A stretch of DNA of 20,000 nt from an uncultured Methanosarcinales archaeon (lineage in GTDB: Archaea; Nanobdellota; Nanobdellia; Woesearchaeales; CAYMBN01): assembly GCA_964388715.1 (NCBI GenBank), contig CAYMBN010000003.1, forward strand, positions 106,322-126,321, given 5' to 3'. How positions within the stretch are numbered: position 1 is the stretch's first letter; every line of letters begins with the position of its first letter. The position numbers and the translations under genes were made by a program. A model generated the notes under the pieces. The model searched no databases. It was not told where the DNA came from and saw nothing but the letters and a program-made list of their open reading frames with translations. This document shows positions 772 to 16,708 of this stretch, in pieces.

Positions 772-796
772 ATCTTATTCTAGAATTTGTTTTTTT

Positions 797-832
797 AAAA
801 AAATAAAAAAAAGAAAGGAAAAAAATTTCCTT
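797..832 (-). terminator. Putative terminator of S-layer gene copy 1
   Basis: AAGGAAA-AAAA-TTTCCTT hairpin (815-832) followed on the minus strand by long T tracts, just after the stop codon. Confidence 0.65.
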
Positions 833-836
833 AGTT

Positions 837-3332
837 TTATTCAGCAGCAGCTTCTTCAGCAGCTGGTGCACTAATAGCGATGTCTGCATCGCTTGTAGTA
901 ACAACTTCTAGTTCAGCGCCTTTGAAGTTATCTGTATGGCTGTCGTATTCAGCAACAACTTTGGAAGCTCTTTGTGTGTCTTTTGCACCGTAACCAGCAA
1001 CAAGTAAAGCTACTTTGCCGCTTGTTTCGTCTTCCATTAACTTAATCTTAGCTTTTCCTGCTTCAAATCCAGCAGCACAATCTTCAGGATTGCCTAGCCA
1101 AACTGCAGCAACTGGGTTAGCACATGGACCACCAACTAAGATAACGTTGCTTTCTTTTTCTTTGCCTTCTAAGTCACTAGCTAACTTTACAGCTCCAACA
1201 TTGATTTTTATTAGTTCTTCACTTGTAACTGCTCCTTCTCCAGCAGATTCAGTTTGTTCAAATGCAACTGCTGTGTCAGATATATAGAAGTTACCATAGA
1301 CTTCGTCACCAGCATAGTCAATTACCAAGGTGTCTTGGTCTGGATCTGTGTCGTAGTTGATCTTTGTTGCTAAATCGGATTTTACATAAGAAATATATTC
1401 TTTTGTTGTACCGATTTCGTAACTTGTTAAAGTTGCTGATGTTCCTGAGAACAAAGTTGCAAAGCTGTTAACTTGTACTTTGTTACTTGCGTGTCCAAGT
1501 GTTACATTAATCCACTGTCCACTTCCTAGGGAACCATCTTTGTTTTCTTCTGCCATATACAATACCCATGTAGCAGGGTCTGTACCTGTTGTGTTAATAT
1601 GGCTTCTGTTTGCTGTGCTTTGTGGCATTGTTGTGTTTTCTACAGGTAGATAAATCATCATACCTTCTTCTGTAATCACTCTATCAAAGTATGTGTTTGT
1701 TCCTGGTGTAATGTTCATTTCTGCTAGTGTTTCATTAAGGTTAGCTAATGTTAATGTTGCGCTTCCAATTGTAAATGATCCAGCTTTTTTGTTTTCCCAT
1801 TTGGTTCCTGTAACAAGGTCTTTGAATGTTGCACCATCTGTGTCATCTATTTTGGTTACTTCAACAAGATATGTTTCTCCTGTGTTTGAACCATCATAGT
1901 AGGTTACAGGTAATGCTTCATAACTTTCATTCCAAGTAACTCTTCCACCATCTAAACTTGTTAACAATCTTTCGTCGGTATGGTCATCTCCACCTAATGT
2001 GTCGAATCCGCTTGTACCGTTGCTACCAAGTAGCTTGATTGTTGCTTCACCAGATTTAATTGGAACTGTTAGTTGTAGTTCTTCGTTTCCACTGTTTTCA
2101 ACTGTTATTATTTCTGAACCTGGTCTTGTTAAACCTTCGTATGAAAGTTTAAATCCACCTAGTCCAGGGAATTCTGCACTGGACTCTTCTGTGATGAATA
2201 AATCTTCATCAGGTGTCCATGTTAGTCTTATGTATGCCATCTCTGTGTTAGATGATCCACTTACTGTTGCGTTAATGTCGCATGTAATTGAATCAACATC
2301 TTCTCCACCAAGTTCTATTTTATCTTTGTGTTCAATGGTAACTTTTTCAGCACCAATGTAGAACTCAACTTTGTCAACTTCTCCTGCTAAGTTTTGGATT
2401 AAGATTTCCTTAACACCAATTTCGGTTCCATCTGTTAATTTGTCAGTGTTACCTTCTGTAATAGCGTCGGTTACTTCGCCATCAACAATGAACTTAGCTT
2501 CTGGAGTTGTACCACCTAGATAGGATACTTTAACTTTGTATTCTTTTTCGTTTACTGTGAAGGTTTTTTCTTCTCCTTCTTCCATTATTGTGCTTAGTGC
2601 TCCACCCATTAATTGTAGTTTATCAACGTTTGCTTTACCATTACCGCTTGCGTCTGCGTCTACGATGTCATATGTTTTACCAAGCATTTCAATCTTGGTA
2701 TTTTTGAAATATGTTACATCTGTAGCACTTGCTGTTGCGTTTGCACTAATAGCACTTTTTGTAAAATCAAGTGTATAGTTTAGCAAAGCACTGTTTCTAG
2801 CTACTCTGAAACCCATTGTAGGTTCTTTATCGTCGTAGTCAGAATCAGCAAACATATCTAATGCTCTACCTGGGTAGAATACGATCTTTTGTTCGTATCC
2901 ATAGTCATTGCTTTGTGTGTTGGTGTATGTACCGTCTGCTAATGCAGTTGGTAAGTCATCACCATCAATTGCAACAACTGACACGTTTGTTATAGCATCT
3001 CCAACATTTAATTTGTTAGATGTTTGCTCTACTTTGTGTGATTCACCGCCACTTGCTACAACAGCAGAACTTGTTGTTCCTGTTGAGACAACTGTGGATT
3101 TTTTCATTGCATATTGCAGACTCATTGCAATGTCTGTAATACCAATTACATCTTCTGCAGCTGCTTTGTCGCCAACGACCATTAAAGCGTCAAACTTCAT
3201 GTCGTCTGTAATAAATGGCGCTGGATAGTTTGCTAGGTCTGCGGCAGCTAAAGCTCCCATCATTGTAGCACCTACCATAAAAGCTCCTGCACCCAGTGCA
3301 ACCACTTTTTTTATTGCTTTTTTTACATCCAT
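837..3332 (-). CDS. S-layer protein, copy 1 (Methanococcus/Thermococcus-type S-layer N/C domains)
   Basis: Signal peptide MDVKKAIKKVVALGAG...ALAA; motifs DLANYPAPF, VVGDKAAAEDVIG, NVILVGGPCANP, LLVAGY..KDT; acidic, Thr-rich, many N-x-S/T sequons; SD GGAGGTG at 3341-3347. Confidence 0.88.
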   Translation of the reverse strand: MDVKKAIKKVVALGAGAFMVGATMMGALAAADLANYPAPFITDDMKFDALMVVGDKAAAEDVIGITDIAMSLQYAMKKSTVVSTGTTSSAVVASGGESHKVEQTSNKLNVGDAITNVSVVAIDGDDLPTALADGTYTNTQSNDYGYEQKIVFYPGRALDMFADSDYDDKEPTMGFRVARNSALLNYTLDFTKSAISANATASATDVTYFKNTKIEMLGKTYDIVDADASGNGKANVDKLQLMGGALSTIMEEGEEKTFTVNEKEYKVKVSYLGGTTPEAKFIVDGEVTDAITEGNTDKLTDGTEIGVKEILIQNLAGEVDKVEFYIGAEKVTIEHKDKIELGGEDVDSITCDINATVSGSSNTEMAYIRLTWTPDEDLFITEESSAEFPGLGGFKLSYEGLTRPGSEIITVENSGNEELQLTVPIKSGEATIKLLGSNGTSGFDTLGGDDHTDERLLTSLDGGRVTWNESYEALPVTYYDGSNTGETYLVEVTKIDDTDGATFKDLVTGTKWENKKAGSFTIGSATLTLANLNETLAEMNITPGTNTYFDRVITEEGMMIYLPVENTTMPQSTANRSHINTTGTDPATWVLYMAEENKDGSLGSGQWINVTLGHASNKVQVNSFATLFSGTSATLTSYEIGTTKEYISYVKSDLATKINYDTDPDQDTLVIDYAGDEVYGNFYISDTAVAFEQTESAGEGAVTSEELIKINVGAVKLASDLEGKEKESNVILVGGPCANPVAAVWLGNPEDCAAGFEAGKAKIKLMEDETSGKVALLVAGYGAKDTQRASKVVAEYDSHTDNFKGAELEVVTTSDADIAISAPAAEEAAAE

Positions 3333-3506
3333 TATCTAAACACCTCCGTGTTTATGTTTTGTGTGGGCTTATCTTAATTTTTTATTGCAGTTATAACCGC
3401 AATAAGATTGACCTTGATTGTGAAGGCCTCATTTTTTTTGAGTATGTGTTTCCTCTATTTTTTAGACTTGTCACTCTAGTTACTTACATTAAAAAGAAGG
3501 AAATTG

Positions 3507-3520
3507 TTTTATAAAAGTTT
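3507..3520 (-). promoter_or_regulatory. Putative BRE/TATA promoter of S-layer copy 1 (copy 2 at 6445-6458)
   Basis: AAACTTTTATAAAA on the minus strand, ~175 bp upstream of the ATG; implies a ~150-nt 5' UTR. Confidence 0.5.
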
Positions 3521-3734
3521 AGTAAATTAGGGTGTTTTTATTGGTAAAATAATGCTGATTTTGGTTGTAGTGGGTGAATTTAATGGAATTAGGGCGTTAT
3601 CATTTTAGAGTAGAGAAGTGTGTTTTTTGGGTGTTTTTTGACCCCTGAAAAATGGTGGTAGAAGGGCTGTAGTGTCTGGATTTGATGGGTAGAAATCATA
3701 TTAGTGTGTGATATTATAAGATAATGTTTTTTTT

Positions 3735-3770
3735 AAAAAAATAAAAAAAAGAAAGGAAAAAAATTTCCTT
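3735..3770 (-). terminator. Putative terminator of S-layer gene copy 2
   Basis: Same hairpin plus T tract as 797-832. Confidence 0.65.
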
Positions 3771-3774
3771 AGTT

Positions 3775-6270
3775 TTATTCAGCAGCAGCTTCTTCAGCAG
3801 CTGGTGCACTAATAGCGATGTCTGCATCGCTTGTAGTAACAACTTCTAGTTCAGCGCCTTTGAAGTTATCTGTATGGCTGTCGTATTCAGCAACAACTTT
3901 GGAAGCTCTTTGTGTGTCTTTTGCACCGTAACCAGCAACAAGTAAAGCTACTTTGCCGCTTGTTTCGTCTTCCATTAACTTAATCTTAGCTTTTCCTGCT
4001 TCAAATCCAGCAGCACAATCTTCAGGATTGCCTAGCCAAACTGCAGCAACTGGGTTAGCACATGGACCACCAACTAAGATAACGTTGCTTTCTTTTTCTT
4101 TGCCTTCTAAGTCACTAGCTAACTTTACAGCTCCAACATTGATTTTTATTAGTTCTTCACTTGTAACTGCTCCTTCTCCAGCAGATTCAGTTTGTTCAAA
4201 TGCAACTGCTGTGTCAGATATATAGAAGTTACCATAGACTTCGTCACCAGCATAGTCAATTACCAAGGTGTCTTGGTCTGGATCTGTGTCGTAGTTGATC
4301 TTTGTTGCTAAATCGGATTTTACATAAGAAATATATTCTTTTGTTGTACCGATTTCGTAACTTGTTAAAGTTGCTGATGTTCCTGAGAACAAAGTTGCAA
4401 AGCTGTTAACTTGTACTTTGTTACTTGCGTGTCCAAGTGTTACATTAATCCACTGTCCACTTCCTAGGGAACCATCTTTGTTTTCTTCTGCCATATACAA
4501 TACCCATGTAGCAGGGTCTGTACCTGTTGTGTTAATATGGCTTCTGTTTGCTGTGCTTTGTGGCATTGTTGTGTTTTCTACAGGTAGATAAATCATCATA
4601 CCTTCTTCTGTAATCACTCTATCAAAGTATGTGTTTGTTCCTGGTGTAATGTTCATTTCTGCTAGTGTTTCATTAAGGTTAGCTAATGTTAATGTTGCGC
4701 TTCCAATTGTAAATGATCCAGCTTTTTTGTTTTCCCATTTGGTTCCTGTAACAAGGTCTTTGAATGTTGCACCATCTGTGTCATCTATTTTGGTTACTTC
4801 AACAAGATATGTTTCTCCTGTGTTTGAACCATCATAGTAGGTTACAGGTAATGCTTCATAACTTTCATTCCAAGTAACTCTTCCACCATCTAAACTTGTT
4901 AACAATCTTTCGTCGGTATGGTCATCTCCACCTAATGTGTCGAATCCGCTTGTACCGTTGCTACCAAGTAGCTTGATTGTTGCTTCACCAGATTTAATTG
5001 GAACTGTTAGTTGTAGTTCTTCGTTTCCACTGTTTTCAACTGTTATTATTTCTGAACCTGGTCTTGTTAAACCTTCGTATGAAAGTTTAAATCCACCTAG
5101 TCCAGGGAATTCTGCACTGGACTCTTCTGTGATGAATAAATCTTCATCAGGTGTCCATGTTAGTCTTATGTATGCCATCTCTGTGTTAGATGATCCACTT
5201 ACTGTTGCGTTAATGTCGCATGTAATTGAATCAACATCTTCTCCACCAAGTTCTATTTTATCTTTGTGTTCAATGGTAACTTTTTCAGCACCAATGTAGA
5301 ACTCAACTTTGTCAACTTCTCCTGCTAAGTTTTGGATTAAGATTTCCTTAACACCAATTTCGGTTCCATCTGTTAATTTGTCAGTGTTACCTTCTGTAAT
5401 AGCGTCGGTTACTTCGCCATCAACAATGAACTTAGCTTCTGGAGTTGTACCACCTAGATAGGATACTTTAACTTTGTATTCTTTTTCGTTTACTGTGAAG
5501 GTTTTTTCTTCTCCTTCTTCCATTATTGTGCTTAGTGCTCCACCCATTAATTGTAGTTTATCAACGTTTGCTTTACCATTACCGCTTGCGTCTGCGTCTA
5601 CGATGTCATATGTTTTACCAAGCATTTCAATCTTGGTATTTTTGAAATATGTTACATCTGTAGCACTTGCTGTTGCGTTTGCACTAATAGCACTTTTTGT
5701 AAAATCAAGTGTATAGTTTAGCAAAGCACTGTTTCTAGCTACTCTGAAACCCATTGTAGGTTCTTTATCGTCGTAGTCAGAATCAGCAAACATATCTAAT
5801 GCTCTACCTGGGTAGAATACGATCTTTTGTTCGTATCCATAGTCATTGCTTTGTGTGTTGGTGTATGTACCGTCTGCTAATGCAGTTGGTAAGTCATCAC
5901 CATCAATTGCAACAACTGACACGTTTGTTATAGCATCTCCAACATTTAATTTGTTAGATGTTTGCTCTACTTTGTGTGATTCACCGCCACTTGCTACAAC
6001 AGCAGAACTTGTTGTTCCTGTTGAGACAACTGTGGATTTTTTCATTGCATATTGCAGACTCATTGCAATGTCTGTAATACCAATTACATCTTCTGCAGCT
6101 GCTTTGTCGCCAACGACCATTAAAGCGTCAAACTTCATGTCGTCTGTAATAAATGGCGCTGGATAGTTTGCTAGGTCTGCGGCAGCTAAAGCTCCCATCA
6201 TTGTAGCACCTACCATAAAAGCTCCTGCACCCAGTGCAACCACTTTTTTTATTGCTTTTTTTACATCCAT
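3775..6270 (-). CDS. S-layer protein, copy 2 (protein identical to copy 1)
   Basis: Same 831-aa translation as 837-3332. Confidence 0.88.
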   Translation of the reverse strand: MDVKKAIKKVVALGAGAFMVGATMMGALAAADLANYPAPFITDDMKFDALMVVGDKAAAEDVIGITDIAMSLQYAMKKSTVVSTGTTSSAVVASGGESHKVEQTSNKLNVGDAITNVSVVAIDGDDLPTALADGTYTNTQSNDYGYEQKIVFYPGRALDMFADSDYDDKEPTMGFRVARNSALLNYTLDFTKSAISANATASATDVTYFKNTKIEMLGKTYDIVDADASGNGKANVDKLQLMGGALSTIMEEGEEKTFTVNEKEYKVKVSYLGGTTPEAKFIVDGEVTDAITEGNTDKLTDGTEIGVKEILIQNLAGEVDKVEFYIGAEKVTIEHKDKIELGGEDVDSITCDINATVSGSSNTEMAYIRLTWTPDEDLFITEESSAEFPGLGGFKLSYEGLTRPGSEIITVENSGNEELQLTVPIKSGEATIKLLGSNGTSGFDTLGGDDHTDERLLTSLDGGRVTWNESYEALPVTYYDGSNTGETYLVEVTKIDDTDGATFKDLVTGTKWENKKAGSFTIGSATLTLANLNETLAEMNITPGTNTYFDRVITEEGMMIYLPVENTTMPQSTANRSHINTTGTDPATWVLYMAEENKDGSLGSGQWINVTLGHASNKVQVNSFATLFSGTSATLTSYEIGTTKEYISYVKSDLATKINYDTDPDQDTLVIDYAGDEVYGNFYISDTAVAFEQTESAGEGAVTSEELIKINVGAVKLASDLEGKEKESNVILVGGPCANPVAAVWLGNPEDCAAGFEAGKAKIKLMEDETSGKVALLVAGYGAKDTQRASKVVAEYDSHTDNFKGAELEVVTTSDADIAISAPAAEEAAAE

Positions 6271-6712
6271 TATCTAAACACCTCCGTGTTTATGTTTTGT
6301 GTGGGCTTATCTTAATTTTTTATTGCAGTTATAACCGCAATAAGATTGACCTTGATTGTGAAGGCCTCATTTTTTTTGAGTATGTGTTTCCTCTATTTTT
6401 TAGACTTGTCACTCTAGTTACTTACATTAAAAAGAAGGAAATTGTTTTATAAAAGTTTAGTAAATTAGGGTGTTTTTATTGGTAAAATAATGCTGATTTT
6501 GGTTGTAGTGGGTGAATTTAATGGAATTAGGGCGTTATCATTTTAGAGTAGAGAAGTGTGTTTTTTGGGTGTATTTTGACCCCTGAAAAATGATGGTAGA
6601 AGGGCTGTAGTGTCTGGATTTGATGGGTAGAGTGATAGGCAGGATATGATAAAGTAATATGTTAATTTTTAGTAAAAATAGTGTTTGAAATGCTCACGGA
6701 ACGATAATTGAG

Positions 6713-7918: not shown

Positions 7919-7987
7919 TTCTTAGTTACTTGTTAGTGGTTAAATAATAGAAAGATTTATAAATGGGTGATTTGTTTTGTAATTTGT

Positions 7988-8452
7988 ATGATACGTAAGA
8001 ATCCGCTTCCAAGACATATGAAGAAAATACCTGGTGGGATTATAGTTCCTTTAACAGGACCACCTGGAGAAAGAACACCAGATCGTGCTGTTGTGGTTAT
8101 TGTTTCTAAATTAAATGAGTATTATAGTGTAAATACAAATACTCTTGGAGAATTAGTGAGATTTGAAAGAGGAGAAAGAATTACCCATGGATCTAGGAAA
8201 AAAAAAGAAACATGGAAAAATTATGTTAAATATGTGGAAGATAATACTTTATATGCAAGAGTGAATATTCAACATCTTGAAAGTGAAGATGATTTTTCTT
8301 ACAATATGAGTGGAACTCAACATGAATTTGCAGTATATTTTAATGTTTGTGGAAGAAATAAATCTGAAAAAGATAGGTTAAGTTGGCAAGAAGCAGAGGA
8401 TTATCTTTTATATCTTGAAGCAAAAACTGCTCAACGTTTAGGTCTTTATTAA
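7988..8452 (+). CDS. Hypothetical protein, apparently co-transcribed with the PolB-like gene
   Basis: Open frame; TATA-like AAAGATTTATAAAT at 7951-7964 favours a leaderless ATG at 7988 (track start 7967 GTG); stop is 1 bp before the next ATG. Confidence 0.65.
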   Translation: MIRKNPLPRHMKKIPGGIIVPLTGPPGERTPDRAVVVIVSKLNEYYSVNTNTLGELVRFERGERITHGSRKKKETWKNYVKYVEDNTLYARVNIQHLESEDDFSYNMSGTQHEFAVYFNVCGRNKSEKDRLSWQEAEDYLLYLEAKTAQRLGLY

Positions 8453-8453
8453 A

Positions 8454-11400
8454 ATGAGTTTGATAATTAATGATGCAATTGAAGTAAGAACTAAAGATAA
8501 AAAAAGTAATTACTTTATTAGTTTTCGTTCTGATGATAAAACAGTTGGACATTTTTGTTCTCCTGTTCCTGAAGATATTGACACAAATAAAAGGAAATCT
8601 TTAATGTGGGATATTGGAATTTTACATAGAGGAGTGGAAATTGAACTTCCAAGTTTAAGACGAGTTTTTGAATTACAATCAAGTATTGAAGATCTTCTTC
8701 AATCAGACGAGGATGAGTCAATGATGATTAGTGAAGCAAAAGAACAATTAGATAATCTATTGAAAGAGAATGATTATGGGGTTTCTGAAATTGATGATGA
8801 TATTTTTATGTTGAAATTGCATCTAAATATTCTGAGACAAGATGATAAAGGAGATTTTTACATTTATGGTGTTAGAAGGACAGAAGATTCTTGTCATGAA
8901 ATAATTGATTGGACAACACTTGTTGAAGATATTGAAACAAGATATTTTACTCCTTCTCAAGATAAAGAATGGGGGATTCCTGATCGTCATATTGCTAGGT
9001 TGTTAGACTTATCAGGAAAGTGGAGTTTTGAAAGTTGTAAAGGTTTTTTTGGTAAGTCATACAACGAGTTAAAAGATATAATGAAAAAAGCTTTCAAGCA
9101 GAGGAAAGAATGTATAACTCATGATGGGATGTTGTGGTTTAAGGATGGAAAGTATTCAGGGCAAGTACATACTGTATATGGTACTACTTTGAATAATGAA
9201 GAAATTAGAAATATAAAAGCAACAATGAGATACTTAAATGGTGAAGAAGTAGTAGTTGACTTTGATATTATATCTCATGAGTTAAGTAGTGCTAAAGTAG
9301 ATGAAAAATATGAAGAGTTTTTAGGAAAACTTTACAGATACAAAGATAGAAGGTCTGTTTTTAAGGAATTCAGAGTTGATAGTGTTGATTATTCTAAGTT
9401 TGAGGAATCTTGTGTGTTAAAGGATAATCAAATTAATAATTTATACAGAAATTGTGTTGAAAAATTGAAGAATGGTATTAATCGTTTGAAAATTAAAGGA
9501 GTTGATCCTTATGCTATAACACCAAAAGAAGAAGAAAGGATTAAGGAAAAAGTAAGAATTTCTGTTGAAACAGTAAAAATAAATAATTTTTTTAGAAATA
9601 TGGATGTTGATCAAAGATGGCAAATAGGACATGATATTAAAACACATTTTGAGCAAGTTAGGATGGGTGAAGCAACAACTGCAGAAGAAATAAGACGTAA
9701 TTCTTTTAATCATTGTTATCATAATGCTTCTTTTGATGTTCCAAAAAAGAAAGAACAAGATACTGAAAGAATTAGTGATACTGGATGGCAAATTGGTAAA
9801 CATGGGGAAGCACCTAGAACATATGGCAAGAGTGAATTTAATAGAAGAGTACATCTTGCTGGAAGAATTTATTTAGATACCTTGGATATAATGAAAAATA
9901 TCTTTCCTGAACTAGGGAAGTATAAACTAGAACACTCATTAAAATATCTTGCTAACTATTTAGGATTACAACTACCTGATATTGAGATTGAAGTTAATGG
10001 AAAAAAGATAAATATTACTCGAAAAGGTGTTAAAGCAATTAGTCATGAAGATATTAGTCCATTAAATTACTTAGCAGAACTTGGTGATCATAAATCAAGA
10101 AGAGAATTATTATATTATCAGATTGCTGATGTTATGAATACAACTTGGTTTGAAAGGAATCTTTCAAGTTTTCTTATACCAATAATAAATATACATGAAG
10201 TGACTAGTTACAGTTTGAGTGATATTATACACTCTGTTAGATCAATGAAAGAAACATGGGATAGGATTTATTTCCTTGGTGGAAAAAAGCATAAAGAATC
10301 ATATGTAACTAGAAGAAAACAAATTTATATGAAGAGAATGGATAGTGGTTTTAAATCATATTTGGGAAGTTGGTTAGGATTTCAAAAACATTTGTGGTGT
10401 GAGATTGAAGAAGATAAAGGTAAAAATAAAAAAGTAAAGAGGAAAAAAACTTTGGAAAGAGTATCTGCTCCTGAGAATACTATTGCTGTTTATATTCCAA
10501 TTGTTGACTGTTTTAGAGGTCTTATTTTAAATAAATTTCCTGAATATAAAAAAATACTTGAAGATCACAGTGTCAGAAGGAATCTTATTATTGAAGATGA
10601 AGATGGTTTTTATGATATAGATGAAACTTCTCCAGAGTATTATAAAGAAAAAGCTCTTTTTAATGTGGAAAATGATCCTGGTGTAGCTGTTCATCAAAGA
10701 AATCAATTAGTTTATACAAGATACTTAGAAAATATTCTAAAGGATGTATTCTTTGATAGGTATAATATTGAATTTTTTGAAGGAATATATAACAAAAGTT
10801 TAGGGTTATGTGAAGTGCAAGAAAGTGATTTTGATTCTCTTGTTGAAAAAATAATTGAGGATAAAGAAAAAGAAGTAAGAACAAGACGTCTCCATTGGAG
10901 AATGAAGAGAGTTATTAATAGTGCAAATAAATTTTTTGAAAAACTTGATCGTATGAAGGAAAAATTTGGTACTGGGTTAAAACAAAAAGAATATGCAAGT
11001 ATTTTAAGGAGTAGTGTTGGTATTAAAAGAAGAACTGCAACTAGAAGAAAAAATGAATTATTTAATGGTGGATATAATGATAATCCTGATGATTTTAAAT
11101 GTTTAAATCTGTGTGAATTGGTTAATCCTGAAATTGAAATTTTAAGAGAATTTAGAGAGCAAGGGTATATTAGGGCCAGAGTAGATAAAAGAGAGAAATC
11201 TCTTTCGTTGGAAGAACTTCAACAAAAGGATTCTGATCTTTATGAACTTTATGAGAAATTTAGTTCTGCATTTGAAGATTATGAACATTATTTTTCTAAT
11301 CCCAATTTTAGTGGAGTAATTTCTGATGTGTATAAGGGGGTAACTGATAGATTAAATTTGGAAAATGCAGTTTATCTTGATCTGATTAGAAAGGAAATGA

Positions 11401-11669
11401 AACACGCACGATGGAAGTTTCAAAGAAGATACAAATTAGAACCTGAAAAGTTTGATGAGATGAAAGATGAGTATTTTAAGAGAATATCAGAGTTCTTAGA
11501 AATGAATAATTTGGTAGCACATAAACAAAGTGGGTTTACTTTATATCTTATTGCAAATGGTGATCAAGAACATGCTATTCAAGCTATAAAAGATTCAAAT
11601 TGTTTAATTTATGCATGTAATTTGAGTTGGGAGCAGTTTAATCTTAGAAAAAGGGGAAAACCTAAATAA
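8454..11669 (+). CDS. Highly diverged, probably inactivated family-B DNA polymerase derivative
   Basis: ExoI-like RKSLMWDIG, ExoII YHNASFDVP, beta-hairpin and GRIYLD, KYKLE...LANYLG, ExoIII LLYYQIADV; no DFxSLYPS or YGDTDS motif. Confidence 0.72.
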   Translation: MSLIINDAIEVRTKDKKSNYFISFRSDDKTVGHFCSPVPEDIDTNKRKSLMWDIGILHRGVEIELPSLRRVFELQSSIEDLLQSDEDESMMISEAKEQLDNLLKENDYGVSEIDDDIFMLKLHLNILRQDDKGDFYIYGVRRTEDSCHEIIDWTTLVEDIETRYFTPSQDKEWGIPDRHIARLLDLSGKWSFESCKGFFGKSYNELKDIMKKAFKQRKECITHDGMLWFKDGKYSGQVHTVYGTTLNNEEIRNIKATMRYLNGEEVVVDFDIISHELSSAKVDEKYEEFLGKLYRYKDRRSVFKEFRVDSVDYSKFEESCVLKDNQINNLYRNCVEKLKNGINRLKIKGVDPYAITPKEEERIKEKVRISVETVKINNFFRNMDVDQRWQIGHDIKTHFEQVRMGEATTAEEIRRNSFNHCYHNASFDVPKKKEQDTERISDTGWQIGKHGEAPRTYGKSEFNRRVHLAGRIYLDTLDIMKNIFPELGKYKLEHSLKYLANYLGLQLPDIEIEVNGKKINITRKGVKAISHEDISPLNYLAELGDHKSRRELLYYQIADVMNTTWFERNLSSFLIPIINIHEVTSYSLSDIIHSVRSMKETWDRIYFLGGKKHKESYVTRRKQIYMKRMDSGFKSYLGSWLGFQKHLWCEIEEDKGKNKKVKRKKTLERVSAPENTIAVYIPIVDCFRGLILNKFPEYKKILEDHSVRRNLIIEDEDGFYDIDETSPEYYKEKALFNVENDPGVAVHQRNQLVYTRYLENILKDVFFDRYNIEFFEGIYNKSLGLCEVQESDFDSLVEKIIEDKEKEVRTRRLHWRMKRVINSANKFFEKLDRMKEKFGTGLKQKEYASILRSSVGIKRRTATRRKNELFNGGYNDNPDDFKCLNLCELVNPEIEILREFREQGYIRARVDKREKSLSLEELQQKDSDLYELYEKFSSAFEDYEHYFSNPNFSGVISDVYKGVTDRLNLENAVYLDLIRKEMKHARWKFQRRYKLEPEKFDEMKDEYFKRISEFLEMNNLVAHKQSGFTLYLIANGDQEHAIQAIKDSNCLIYACNLSWEQFNLRKRGKPK

Positions 11670-15511: not shown

Positions 15512-16030
15512 TTGGTGATACTAAAAAAGATTAGGGTTATGTTGGCTACACTTATTGTTCTATTATGTTTTACTATGATTGCTATTGATTATCATGAAAC
15601 ACCTTATACTGGTTTTGCAGTTTATTCTGGTGTTGCTGTTGATGATATGGTTAATAATCTTGATGATACAAAAACTTCTTTTAATAAAAATGTTGAATAT
15701 ATGCCTGATTATGCTAAGACAGTGTTTGGTAATGAAAGGATTAACCTGAATATTACAAGAGAAAGTGGTGAAGTTAATATTGTTGGAATTATTACTGAAG
15801 AAGGTGTTGTAGTTGAAATGGTTAATGGAAGTATAGAAAATGCAACATTAAATATTCAGACAGATGAAAAAACAATAAATGAAATAGTTGAATCAGAGGA
15901 TCAAATTACAACATTTAGAGAAGCTTTTGATGAGGAAGAGATTGAATTTAAGGCTACTAGATTTGGTTTGAAAGTTAAGATGTGGTTTGCTAAACTTGTT
16001 CTGAAAATCATGGGTTGGTTTGGAAAGTAA
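15512..16030 (+). CDS. Hypothetical membrane-anchored acidic protein (C-terminal part weakly SCP2-like)
   Basis: N-terminal TM followed by TGFAV; FGNERINLNI...ATLNIQTDEKTI...; SD AAGGTG upstream. Confidence 0.6.
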   Translation: MVILKKIRVMLATLIVLLCFTMIAIDYHETPYTGFAVYSGVAVDDMVNNLDDTKTSFNKNVEYMPDYAKTVFGNERINLNITRESGEVNIVGIITEEGVVVEMVNGSIENATLNIQTDEKTINEIVESEDQITTFREAFDEEEIEFKATRFGLKVKMWFAKLVLKIMGWFGK

Positions 16031-16049
16031 ATTCTTCTTGAAAAAAACA

Positions 16050-16062
16050 AAGATTTATAAAT
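16050..16062 (+). promoter_or_regulatory. Putative BRE-TATA promoter for the ncRNA/tRNA-Glu transcript
   Basis: AAGATTTATAAAT about 25 nt upstream of G16087. Confidence 0.55.
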
Positions 16063-16085
16063 GAAAATAGAAAATCTAATCTATA

Positions 16086-16167
16086 TGCGTGTTGTTGTAG
16101 CCGCGGGAACTGGTTACGCTCAGTTCACACGCAAAATAAGACTCCTAGTTGTTTCACAACCGGAGTC
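16086..16167 (+). ncRNA. Unidentified structured RNA upstream of tRNA-Glu
   Basis: GC-rich island with stems TGCGTGT/ACACGCA, GAACTG/CAGTTC, GACTCC/GGAGTC and GTTG/CAAC. Confidence 0.5.
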
Positions 16168-16173
16168 AAATAC

Positions 16174-16280
16174 GCCCCGTTGGTGTAGCCCGGCCAATCA
16201 TTTTGCCCTTTCGAGGCAAAGACTCGAGTTCAAATTCCAACAAGGTTCAATCCTACGGATTGAAAGTCTCGGACGGGGCA
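16174..16280 (+). tRNA. tRNA-Glu(TTC) with a 32-nt non-canonical T-loop intron (16235-16266, position 59/60)
   Basis: Acceptor GCCCCGT/ACGGGGC+A; anticodon stem TTGCC/GGCAA with loop CT-TTC-GA; T-arm TCGAG-TTCAAA|T-CTCGG is restored by removing the insert; 75 nt mature. Confidence 0.9.
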
Positions 16281-16282
16281 TT

Positions 16283-16708
16283 TTATCTTCCAAGAACTTC
16301 TTCTAATTTAGTTATGACATCTTTGCCGAGTTTAAGAGAAAGGTCATCTTTACTGTCAGCCCAATAAAGACATTCACCTTCATCTGTGTGATGGATATCA
16401 CCAATCCAATCTTTTATTGCGAAAGCTAGTGCTCTGCAACCATCTTTTTCATAATAAAAGTTGCCTAGGCAGAAGTAGTTTAGTAATCTTATTCCAGTGC
16501 CATCTTCTGTTTTTATCTCTTCACGCATTTCTCTTTTTATTCCTGTGTGTACTGGTTCAAAACCTTTTTTTAGATGACCACCTGGTAAGGCAATTTGGTT
16601 TTTATAGTGTTCTTCATCATCTTTTCTTTTTTCTACGAGATATTCAAGTTTACCATCATTGAATCTATAGAAGACTCCTACTACAATTAGCTTATCTGGC
16701 GGGTTCAT
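16283..16708 (-). CDS. NUDIX hydrolase
   Basis: ALPGGHLKKGFEPVHTGIKREMREEI Nudix box (slightly variant spacing); YLVEKRK upstream. Confidence 0.88.
   Translation of the reverse strand: MNPPDKLIVVGVFYRFNDGKLEYLVEKRKDDEEHYKNQIALPGGHLKKGFEPVHTGIKREMREEIKTEDGTGIRLLNYFCLGNFYYEKDGCRALAFAIKDWIGDIHHTDEGECLYWADSKDDLSLKLGKDVITKLEEVLGR

Follow-up and report, generated by a model that had tools for sequence, protein, structure and literature searches.

The stretch analysed here (the window, 20,000 nt) lies inside a 1.3-Mb genome assembly and carries archaeal genes (TFB-like and S-layer ORFs). The S-layer gene (831 aa) is duplicated in tandem (790-3634 and 3728-6572), exactly over 2845 bp with a period of 2938 and 0 mismatches between the two ORF copies, which reflects either a very recent event or an assembly artefact. 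A 1071-aa ORF (8454-11669), whose motifs we take by eye to be like those of a proofreading exonuclease, had no Pfam match, and neither had the 161-aa ORF just before it (7967-8452). Further downstream, a tRNA-Glu gene and its upstream region contain the following features, all on the + strand.

16042-16061, +: purine-rich BRE-like stretch and TATA box TTTATAAA (TATA 16054-16061), the putative tRNA-Glu promoter, from sequence and archaeal consensus
16083-16106, +: altered upstream duplicate of the target, which comprises the leader and 20 nt from the start of tRNA-Glu; lies where the gene originally began
16107-16134, +: conserved 28-nt head with stem 16107-12/16121-26, loop GTTACGCT and tail ACACGCAA, from family matches and covariation
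16118-19 with 16131-32, +: 2-bp pseudoknot of the head (GC with GC), from covariation
16140-16167, +: variable second hairpin of the GACTCCTAG...CCGGAGTC subfamily, z -3.9
16107-16169, +: the entire putative inserted element, 63 nt, from the empty-allele comparison; folding z -5.0
16170-16193, +: downstream, intact copy of the duplicated target, restoring the tRNA 5' end, from sequence, empty allele and alignment
16174-16280, +: tRNA-Glu(TTC) gene, complete 3' of the element; ARAGORN score 120.1 once the T-loop intron is removed
16235-16266, +: T-loop intron of 32 nt at position 59/60, with a 4-bp central and a 2-bp exon helix, devoid of the 28-nt head

A promoter function for 16042-16061 is predicted from the archaeal promoter consensus. 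The tRNA-Glu gene was misread both by ARAGORN, as 16173-16263, and by Rfam (23.5 bits), and intron-less tRNA-Glu contigs from all four runs part from the window sequence at 16235. RNase P RNA, EndA and two RtcB proteins are encoded in the window's genome, enough to trim a 5' leader and to splice the T-loop intron. The RtcB homologues lie at C10:35534-36820 and C5:18126-19538, the second being divergent (275 bits). The T-loop intron contains an 8-bp hairpin with one T-loop-like arm, as if it came from fold-back copying of the target, and ends in TGAAAG, as do many element-containing introns.

The two copies of the duplicated target agree in 19 of 25 alignment columns, with a repeat score of 9, and this degeneracy called for separate proof of insertion. 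A contig from run X9 matches 16042-16075 with one difference in 34 letters, continues with 6 other letters and then resumes at 16170, covering the tRNA and the same T-loop intron with 5 differences and 1 gap. This single contig is 151 nt long, has a depth of 2 and was placed at 82% likeness, and joints of this kind frequently originate in other organisms; the promoter and intron in common with the window led us to regard it as a close relative's empty allele. Coverage holes in runs X3, X4 and X10 were uninformative. The net 88 nt absent from this allele fit a 63-nt element plus a 24-nt duplication. The tRNA of the empty allele begins 25 nt after the TATA box, with the same spacing as the altered duplicate in the window, and the promoter therefore belongs to the tRNA itself; it would transcribe the element, as originally predicted, but as tRNA-Glu's own promoter. 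We consider it very probable that 16107-16169 is an insertion of a mobile-element family member. The element appears to have landed in tRNA-Glu behind the GG of the D-loop, with a duplication of 24 bp; the downstream duplicate keeps the tRNA intact, so that the insertion results in an 87-nt leader, which RNase P is expected to cut off. Neither blastn nor a profile search detected a second head in the window's genome, which thus has one copy in total.

When 16030-16300 was searched in 60 related genomes, 16107-16134 was matched in 12, besides the tRNA matches. A 25-letter degenerate pattern then matched at least 116 stretches in a species-genome collection. Among the 80 matches listed by title, 56 came from DPANN groups, 18 from uncultured Methanosarcinales, 5 from an unnamed archaeon and 1 from a bacterium (labels as deposited); the 56 DPANN titles comprised 44 Woesearchaeota, Nanobdellota, Nanoarchaeota or Nanoarchaeia, 9 Nanohaloarchaea, 2 Asbonarchaeaceae and 1 iainarchaeon. 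Given its archaeal genes and these mostly woesearchaeotal matches, the window is taken to stem from a probable Woesearchaeota-type DPANN archaeon. With one mismatch allowed, the head was present in 74 of 401 genomes of the order (69 of 396 without five unpublished genomes) at 1-16 copies each, the reversed-pattern control yielding 0, and in 0 of 63 genomes from other orders of the class. A further 122 stretches with the head were found in metagenomes and a copy in a complete nanohaloarchaeal genome (Ca. Nanosalina VS9-1, L124); a viral collection gave 0 exact matches to the pattern and plasmids no match to the head. Three matches with 2 mismatches (L288, L298 and L344) were discarded as chance.

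The structure of the head was assessed in 48 hand-picked distinct variants, 29 nt long. A 6-bp stem (1-6 with 15-20) and a 2-bp pseudoknot (12-13 with 25-26) were 96.4% paired across the 48 variants, with 47 double-sided changes against 10 in shuffles, none of 500 shuffles being as good, a result far above that of slid controls; covariation was 0.441 against 0.188 when shuffled. Pair 1-20 occurs in all four Watson-Crick forms and pair 13-25 changes from C-G to G-C in 8 variants. Relatedness inflates these counts and invariance elsewhere was partly imposed by the search pattern, which let paired positions vary without demanding pairing, so that the covariation was not imposed by the search. In the window, the covarying pseudoknot lies at 16118-19/16131-32 and not between GTAGCC and GGTTAC, as originally proposed. 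One stem pair is U-A in 24 and U-G in 17 of the 48 variants, which fits the + strand, but folding gave no strand preference (+ against -, 109 versus 125 as RNA and 116 versus 113 as DNA). Nor was the + strand favoured by the kinds of mismatch found in the second hairpin (GT 23, AC 30). A second hairpin of the window's type stands behind the head at 7 loci, the window copy included. In one locus (L031, ~1880-1950), a variant head with another loop and tail, in which loop-tail pairing is apparently kept (CTG with CAG), lies just 5' of a standard copy.

Target duplications were sought in 262 matches distinct in their 57-nt context, 245 of which had enough flank. A direct repeat with a score of at least 12 (the shuffled null maximum was 11) ending within 14 nt of the head was detected at 58 of these 245 loci, against 7 of 227 with the upstream window shifted by 120 nt. 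After removal of 5 tandem-array cases, 53 loci remained, at which 51-220 nt are enclosed by repeats 12-80 bp long (median 22), and in 48 of them the duplication ends 0-6 nt from the head. The targets were the starts of tRNA genes, from the leader to the D-loop, their ends, from the T-loop onwards and in both orientations, and protein-gene starts, including triosephosphate isomerase-like and pilin-like ORFs named by reading their translations; at tRNA 5' and 3' ends together, 19 sense and 4 antisense reconstructions were obtained. Neither a duplication nor a reconstructable tRNA was found at 129 of 259 loci; many of these lie in 300-400-nt nested palindromic mosaics, in multi-copy genomes, and some in tandem arrays or inside other copies. 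As kin and within-genome families are among the loci, these counts overstate the number of independent events. The 3' end of intron-type copies was mostly missing from duplication-flanked copies (observed, uncounted). Of the tail bases, 162 of 416 are A and 27 of the 53 duplications begin with A, figures taken without a background control.

The same head also opens tRNA introns, and at many loci removal of the insert restores a high-scoring tRNA. A strict filter retained 39 of 259 matches as clean sense introns, 19 in the T-loop, 18 in the anticodon loop and 2 elsewhere, with 16 ARAGORN isotype labels and three genes mislabelled Pyl. A BHB (bulge-helix-bulge) structure with a 4-bp central and a 2-bp exon helix was present in 28 of the 39, against 4.6 expected from shuffled intron ends, its intron-side helix being often partial. 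The distance between the 5' splice site and the start of the head is 0-2 nt in 33 of the 39, and at 48 of the 259 loci the head stands directly behind a T-loop-like sequence. Intron-type copies were sense in 64 cases versus 2, and one antisense T-loop insert was seen (L145). The two states share sequence beyond the head, as 18 of the 53 duplication-flanked bodies have 12-27 nt in common with an intron body (control, 2). A tRNA-Gly-like gene (L035, 216-420) apparently has three introns, the first headed by the 28-nt head; ARAGORN finds no gene there.

The sequences on which the original prediction was built were all confirmed in place, namely the TATA box at 16054-16061, the 7-bp stem TGCGTGT/ACACGCA (16086-92/16127-33), the 6-bp stem GAACTG/CAGTTC (16107-12/16121-26) and the second-domain hairpin (16140-16167), and the region 16086-16167 does fold as a structured RNA (-29.7 kcal/mol, z -3.6, 0 of 200 shuffles as good). 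The 7-bp stem is not part of a conserved fold: it is specific to the window copy, where it is built with the altered duplicate, and is absent from the family fold. Likewise, GTAGCC (16097-16102) is complementary to GGTTAC (16112-17) as claimed, but this pairing belongs to the window copy and is not a family pseudoknot; the helix competes with the 6-bp stem, G16112 being common to both. In a model of the ensemble of 16083-16280 that considers secondary structure only, the 7-bp stem had a probability of 0.98, the GTAGCC/GGTTAC helix 0.93, the family stem 0.07 and the true acceptor stem 0.97.

Promoter and tRNA of the relative are ~5% different from those of the window, but the upstream duplicate disagrees with its twin in 6 of 25 columns, mostly through changes that create TGCGTGT, the exact complement of the tail of the head. 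With an unaltered duplicate, the upstream copy would capture the acceptor pairing in the model (0.97). The rewritten duplicate is thus predicted to pair with the head, to unfold the family structure and to free the tRNA acceptor stem, and the first domain of the original prediction would be the duplicate sequestering the element, through templated change, selection or both. A weaker trend in the family agrees with the head pairing of the window copy: compared with the original target, the extra bases before the head pair better with it in 22 of 32 loci and worse in 7, a net of 15, the highest value in 300 random draws being 10. Upstream of the head, a 6-mer able to pair with the tail is rare, with 7 of 242 loci (control, 1).

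Taken together, these observations are probably best explained by a small, non-coding and non-autonomous mobile element of DPANN archaea that is copied from RNA and seeds introns. As to its route, we infer an RNA-templated, target-primed insertion, to which we give roughly even chances. The head would be the 5' end of an RNA, e.g. a tRNA intron cut out by EndA, that would be copied at a staggered nick pair, with priming from the target near the variable and often A-rich 3' end of the RNA. The copy would reach the fixed 5' end, sometimes with a few-base fold-back on itself, and would then be linked to the DNA at the second nick. Where a copy lies in a T- or anticodon loop and gains a bulge-helix-bulge, it would persist as an intron and serve as the next donor. 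An RNA that is copied at staggered nicks, with snap-back where the template ends, is consistent with the variable length of the duplications, the fixed 5' end coinciding with the intron 5' splice site, the short inverted sequences at junctions and the sense bias of introns. Snap-back and end joining have been reported for group II-like RTs, and snap-back synthesis for G2L4 RT and Pol theta (10.1101/2022.03.14.484287). We advance only tentatively the narrower proposal of an archaeal SINE-like element, in which excised introns with a pseudoknotted recognition head would be recopied by target-primed synthesis and would seed BHB introns. The head would then be a recognition signal or a new small ribozyme; its fixed 5' boundary and pseudoknot are the only hints of a self-cleaving ribozyme.

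The co-occurrence of candidate enzymes was examined for five Pfam families in 33 genomes with at least 2 copies and 33 without the exact pattern, plus the window's genome. RVT_1 was detected in 8 of 33 multi-copy and 6 of 33 motif-free genomes, and neither in the window's genome nor in a single-contig genome with 3 copies (G016), although divergent RTs could escape such a search. Y1_Tnp showed a mild excess (17/33 versus 9/33), Cas1 (2/33 in both sets) and RtcB (32/33 versus 33/33) were uninformative, and GIY-YIG domains (15 versus 11 of 33 each) were mostly of UvrC size. No recurrent enzyme or integrase family emerged among 920 neighbouring ORFs, and HARP was not found in the window's genome. 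The sole candidate for an autonomous long copy, with a 42-bp repeat at ~870 nt (L281), was rejected, as it encloses only an SDR-like gene.

The leading alternative, which we hold to be rather less likely, is a DNA route in which a REP/SRM-like single-stranded hairpin of the - strand would be mobilised by a small nuclease or HUH transposase through nicking and template-switching repair; direct and inverted duplications would result from the repair, and the introns would be surviving copies spliceable by EndA. In typical copies, the - strand reads TGTC followed by a hairpin, like the CGTC/TGTC-tagged repeats described in the accessible text of PMC3733652, and resembles the 28-nt NTS cut by SsnA in that of PMC11893778. 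The nested palindromic mosaics of multi-copy genomes, the occurrence of both orientations at tRNA 3' ends and the excess of Y1_Tnp also agree with a DNA route, but intron-type copies are nearly all sense. Moreover, 5 small stand-alone GIY-YIG and 25 Y1 loci carry neither the head nor a shared body in their flanks (~1.5 kb for the head at the GIY-YIG loci), the one exception being an IS200-type gene ~260 nt from a tRNA-Gly intron copy, and no stand-alone GIY-YIG gene was found in the window's genome. The TGTC tag is that of the commonest variants and reads TGTG in the window copy, and the 6-bp stem and 8-nt loop contrast with the 8-9 bp and 4-5 nt of the CGTC families. The word 'duplication' is absent from the available portion of PMC3733652, and the available text on these repeats describes no covarying loop-tail pseudoknot. 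Derivation from IS200/IS605 or RAYT elements was rejected, given the Y1 loci without shared flanks save one neighbour and the presence of long duplications.

An unlikely variant dispenses with a dedicated mobiliser, with a host polymerase or primase capturing abundant excised intron RNA or DNA at breaks in highly transcribed genes by snap-back and end-joining, and with a head conserved for a function within introns and not for mobility. Three observations lean this way, namely the resemblance of the inverted junction bases to the snap-back of G2L4 RT and Pol theta (10.1101/2022.03.14.484287, accessible part), the presence of copies in the single-contig genome, which has no RVT_1, Y1, GIY-YIG or Cas1 matches, and the T-loop intron of the window, which holds an apparent fold-back copy of a T-loop-like sequence and lacks the head. 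This variant leaves unexplained why 28 nt are near-invariant from Woesearchaeota to Nanohaloarchaea and yet patchily distributed within and beyond the order (74/401 and 0/63), and why the head always abuts the junction.

The original prediction of a standalone ncRNA leading the tRNA-Glu transcript, a riboswitch-like leader, tRNA mimic, processing signal or ribozyme, is now very improbable. It had in its favour the strong fold, the position under a promoter, the two alternative model folds and, from this work, similar copies 5' of tRNA-Glu in other genomes, and its statement that no known RNA family matches was borne out by covariance-model matching: at gathering score, Rfam 15 returned no family in the window (SRP, RNase P, 5S, C/D, H/ACA, riboswitches and ribozymes included), at E<=10 only a weak tRNA match and chance matches in 15900-16400, and on 11 related loci only tRNAs. 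Likeness to twister, pistol, HDV, preQ1 and group I/II introns was dismissed for wrong topology and want of an Rfam match. The absence of the element from the allele of a close relative largely refutes a functional leader. The conserved unit comprises only 16107-16134 and a variable hairpin, which are inserted; it occurs at many tRNA isotypes, at protein-gene starts and in both orientations, antisense to tRNAs included, which is not what a riboswitch, a tRNA mimic or a signal for tRNA-Glu processing would lead one to expect. Both the long stem and the GTAGCC/GGTTAC pairing depend on the duplicate, and the window's genome has an RNase P RNA of its own. The likeness of the 5' domain to the tRNA 5' part is real but stems from target-site duplication and not from a tRNA-derived minihelix: the tRNA-like part of element loci is the duplicated target and varies with it in other copies, and 16086-16133 has no T-loop or CCA.

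An attL/attR scar of a deleted integrative element of the pNOB8/SSV type at the tRNA 5' end is hardly credible: such elements typically duplicate a tRNA 5' or 3' end (PMC3293823), but only 63 nt separate the repeats, no integrase family recurs among the neighbours, the 12-80-bp repeats occur at unrelated targets including protein genes, and neither an exact viral match nor a plasmid match was found. A MITE was excluded by the head at one end only, the variable 3' end and the 12-80-bp duplication, in place of terminal inverted repeats and a short fixed duplication, and casposon or Cas1 insertion by the equal Cas1 counts and the variable duplication length.

Eukaryotic SINEs and other non-autonomous target-primed retroelements are short and non-coding, produce duplications of variable length with extra bases at the 5' junction and are served by an enzyme acting in trans, and the RNA-copied element favoured here resembles them in these respects. 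Retrozymes (PMC5680766, accessible part) are grouped with such SINE-like non-autonomous elements as the nearest systems. The element differs from both in being prokaryotic, with a 5' end that is fixed and a 3' end that varies, and in having neither a clear poly(A) nor a hammerhead; no RT partner was found.

Transposed BHB tRNA introns of Thermoproteales were reportedly described by Fujishima and colleagues in 2010. Such introns, as presented in the accessible parts of PMC4090602 and 10.64898/2026.10.13.758758, likewise occur in different isotypes and positions with a BHB at the junctions. Unlike them, the element is also found outside introns, with 12-80-bp duplications, in protein genes and in antisense, and has a covarying structured head common to DPANN lineages; the window copy itself is not an intron, the tRNA being complete 3' of it. 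With the CGTC-tagged REPs, or NTS-SRM, and their Ssn GIY-YIG nucleases (PMC3733652 and PMC11893778, accessible parts), it shares an oriented hairpin of ~28 nt with a one-sided unpaired tag, multiple copies, mosaics and the lack of a known dedicated transposase. It differs in being archaeal, in its 6-bp stem, conserved 8-nt loop and loop-tail pseudoknot, and in its long target duplications and tRNA targeting, and no linked Ssn-like gene was found. The pNOB8/SSV integrative elements (PMC3293823, accessible part) are similar in the direct repeat of a tRNA end around inserted DNA and in a proposed link to intron gain, but the present element has no integrase, is tiny and uses many unrelated targets.

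No description of the element was found in the literature searched, most subscription papers (Fujishima 2010 included) and bioRxiv supplements lying outside that search. The main text of 10.64898/2026.10.21.760802 contains no DPANN, Woese or Nanoarchae term, and its supplements or atlas may hold the motif. This is apparently an undescribed small mobile, intron-forming element of DPANN archaea. In their accessible parts, PMC4090602 calls the mechanism of Thermoproteales intron transposition unknown, and a 2026 preprint on Asgard archaea (10.64898/2026.10.13.758758) reports no route of intron arrival and makes no mention of DPANN. On the question of how archaeal tRNA genes acquire their intron DNA, this family offers a handle: the same sequence exists both as a spliceable intron and as an insertion with target scars, alongside a pair of filled and empty alleles. 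Junction signatures and a 28-nt bait make mechanism and enzyme directly testable, and if the SINE-like proposal were true, the family would represent a class of prokaryotic retro-mobile RNA not found described and a direct route of intron gain. The copies also disrupt standard tRNA annotation.

Some arrangements of the head deserve separate mention. At L294 (2500-2584), L074 (465-523), L222, L079 and L300, the 28-nt head is repeated in tandem, either alone or together with the duplication, which displays the minimal unit and its repeated insertion at one site. Nested palindromes of 300-400 nt with genome-specific outer arms carry the head in L036-L043, L191, L198-L205, L219-L221 and L229-L231, and are possibly a second repeat family acting as a carrier. 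In three loci of nanohaloarchaeal type (L071, L083 and L299), one and the same gene, judged ribonucleotide-reductase-like from its translation, has a stop codon that overlaps the head; a hairpin and a T-rich tract follow the head, which has perhaps been co-opted as a terminator.
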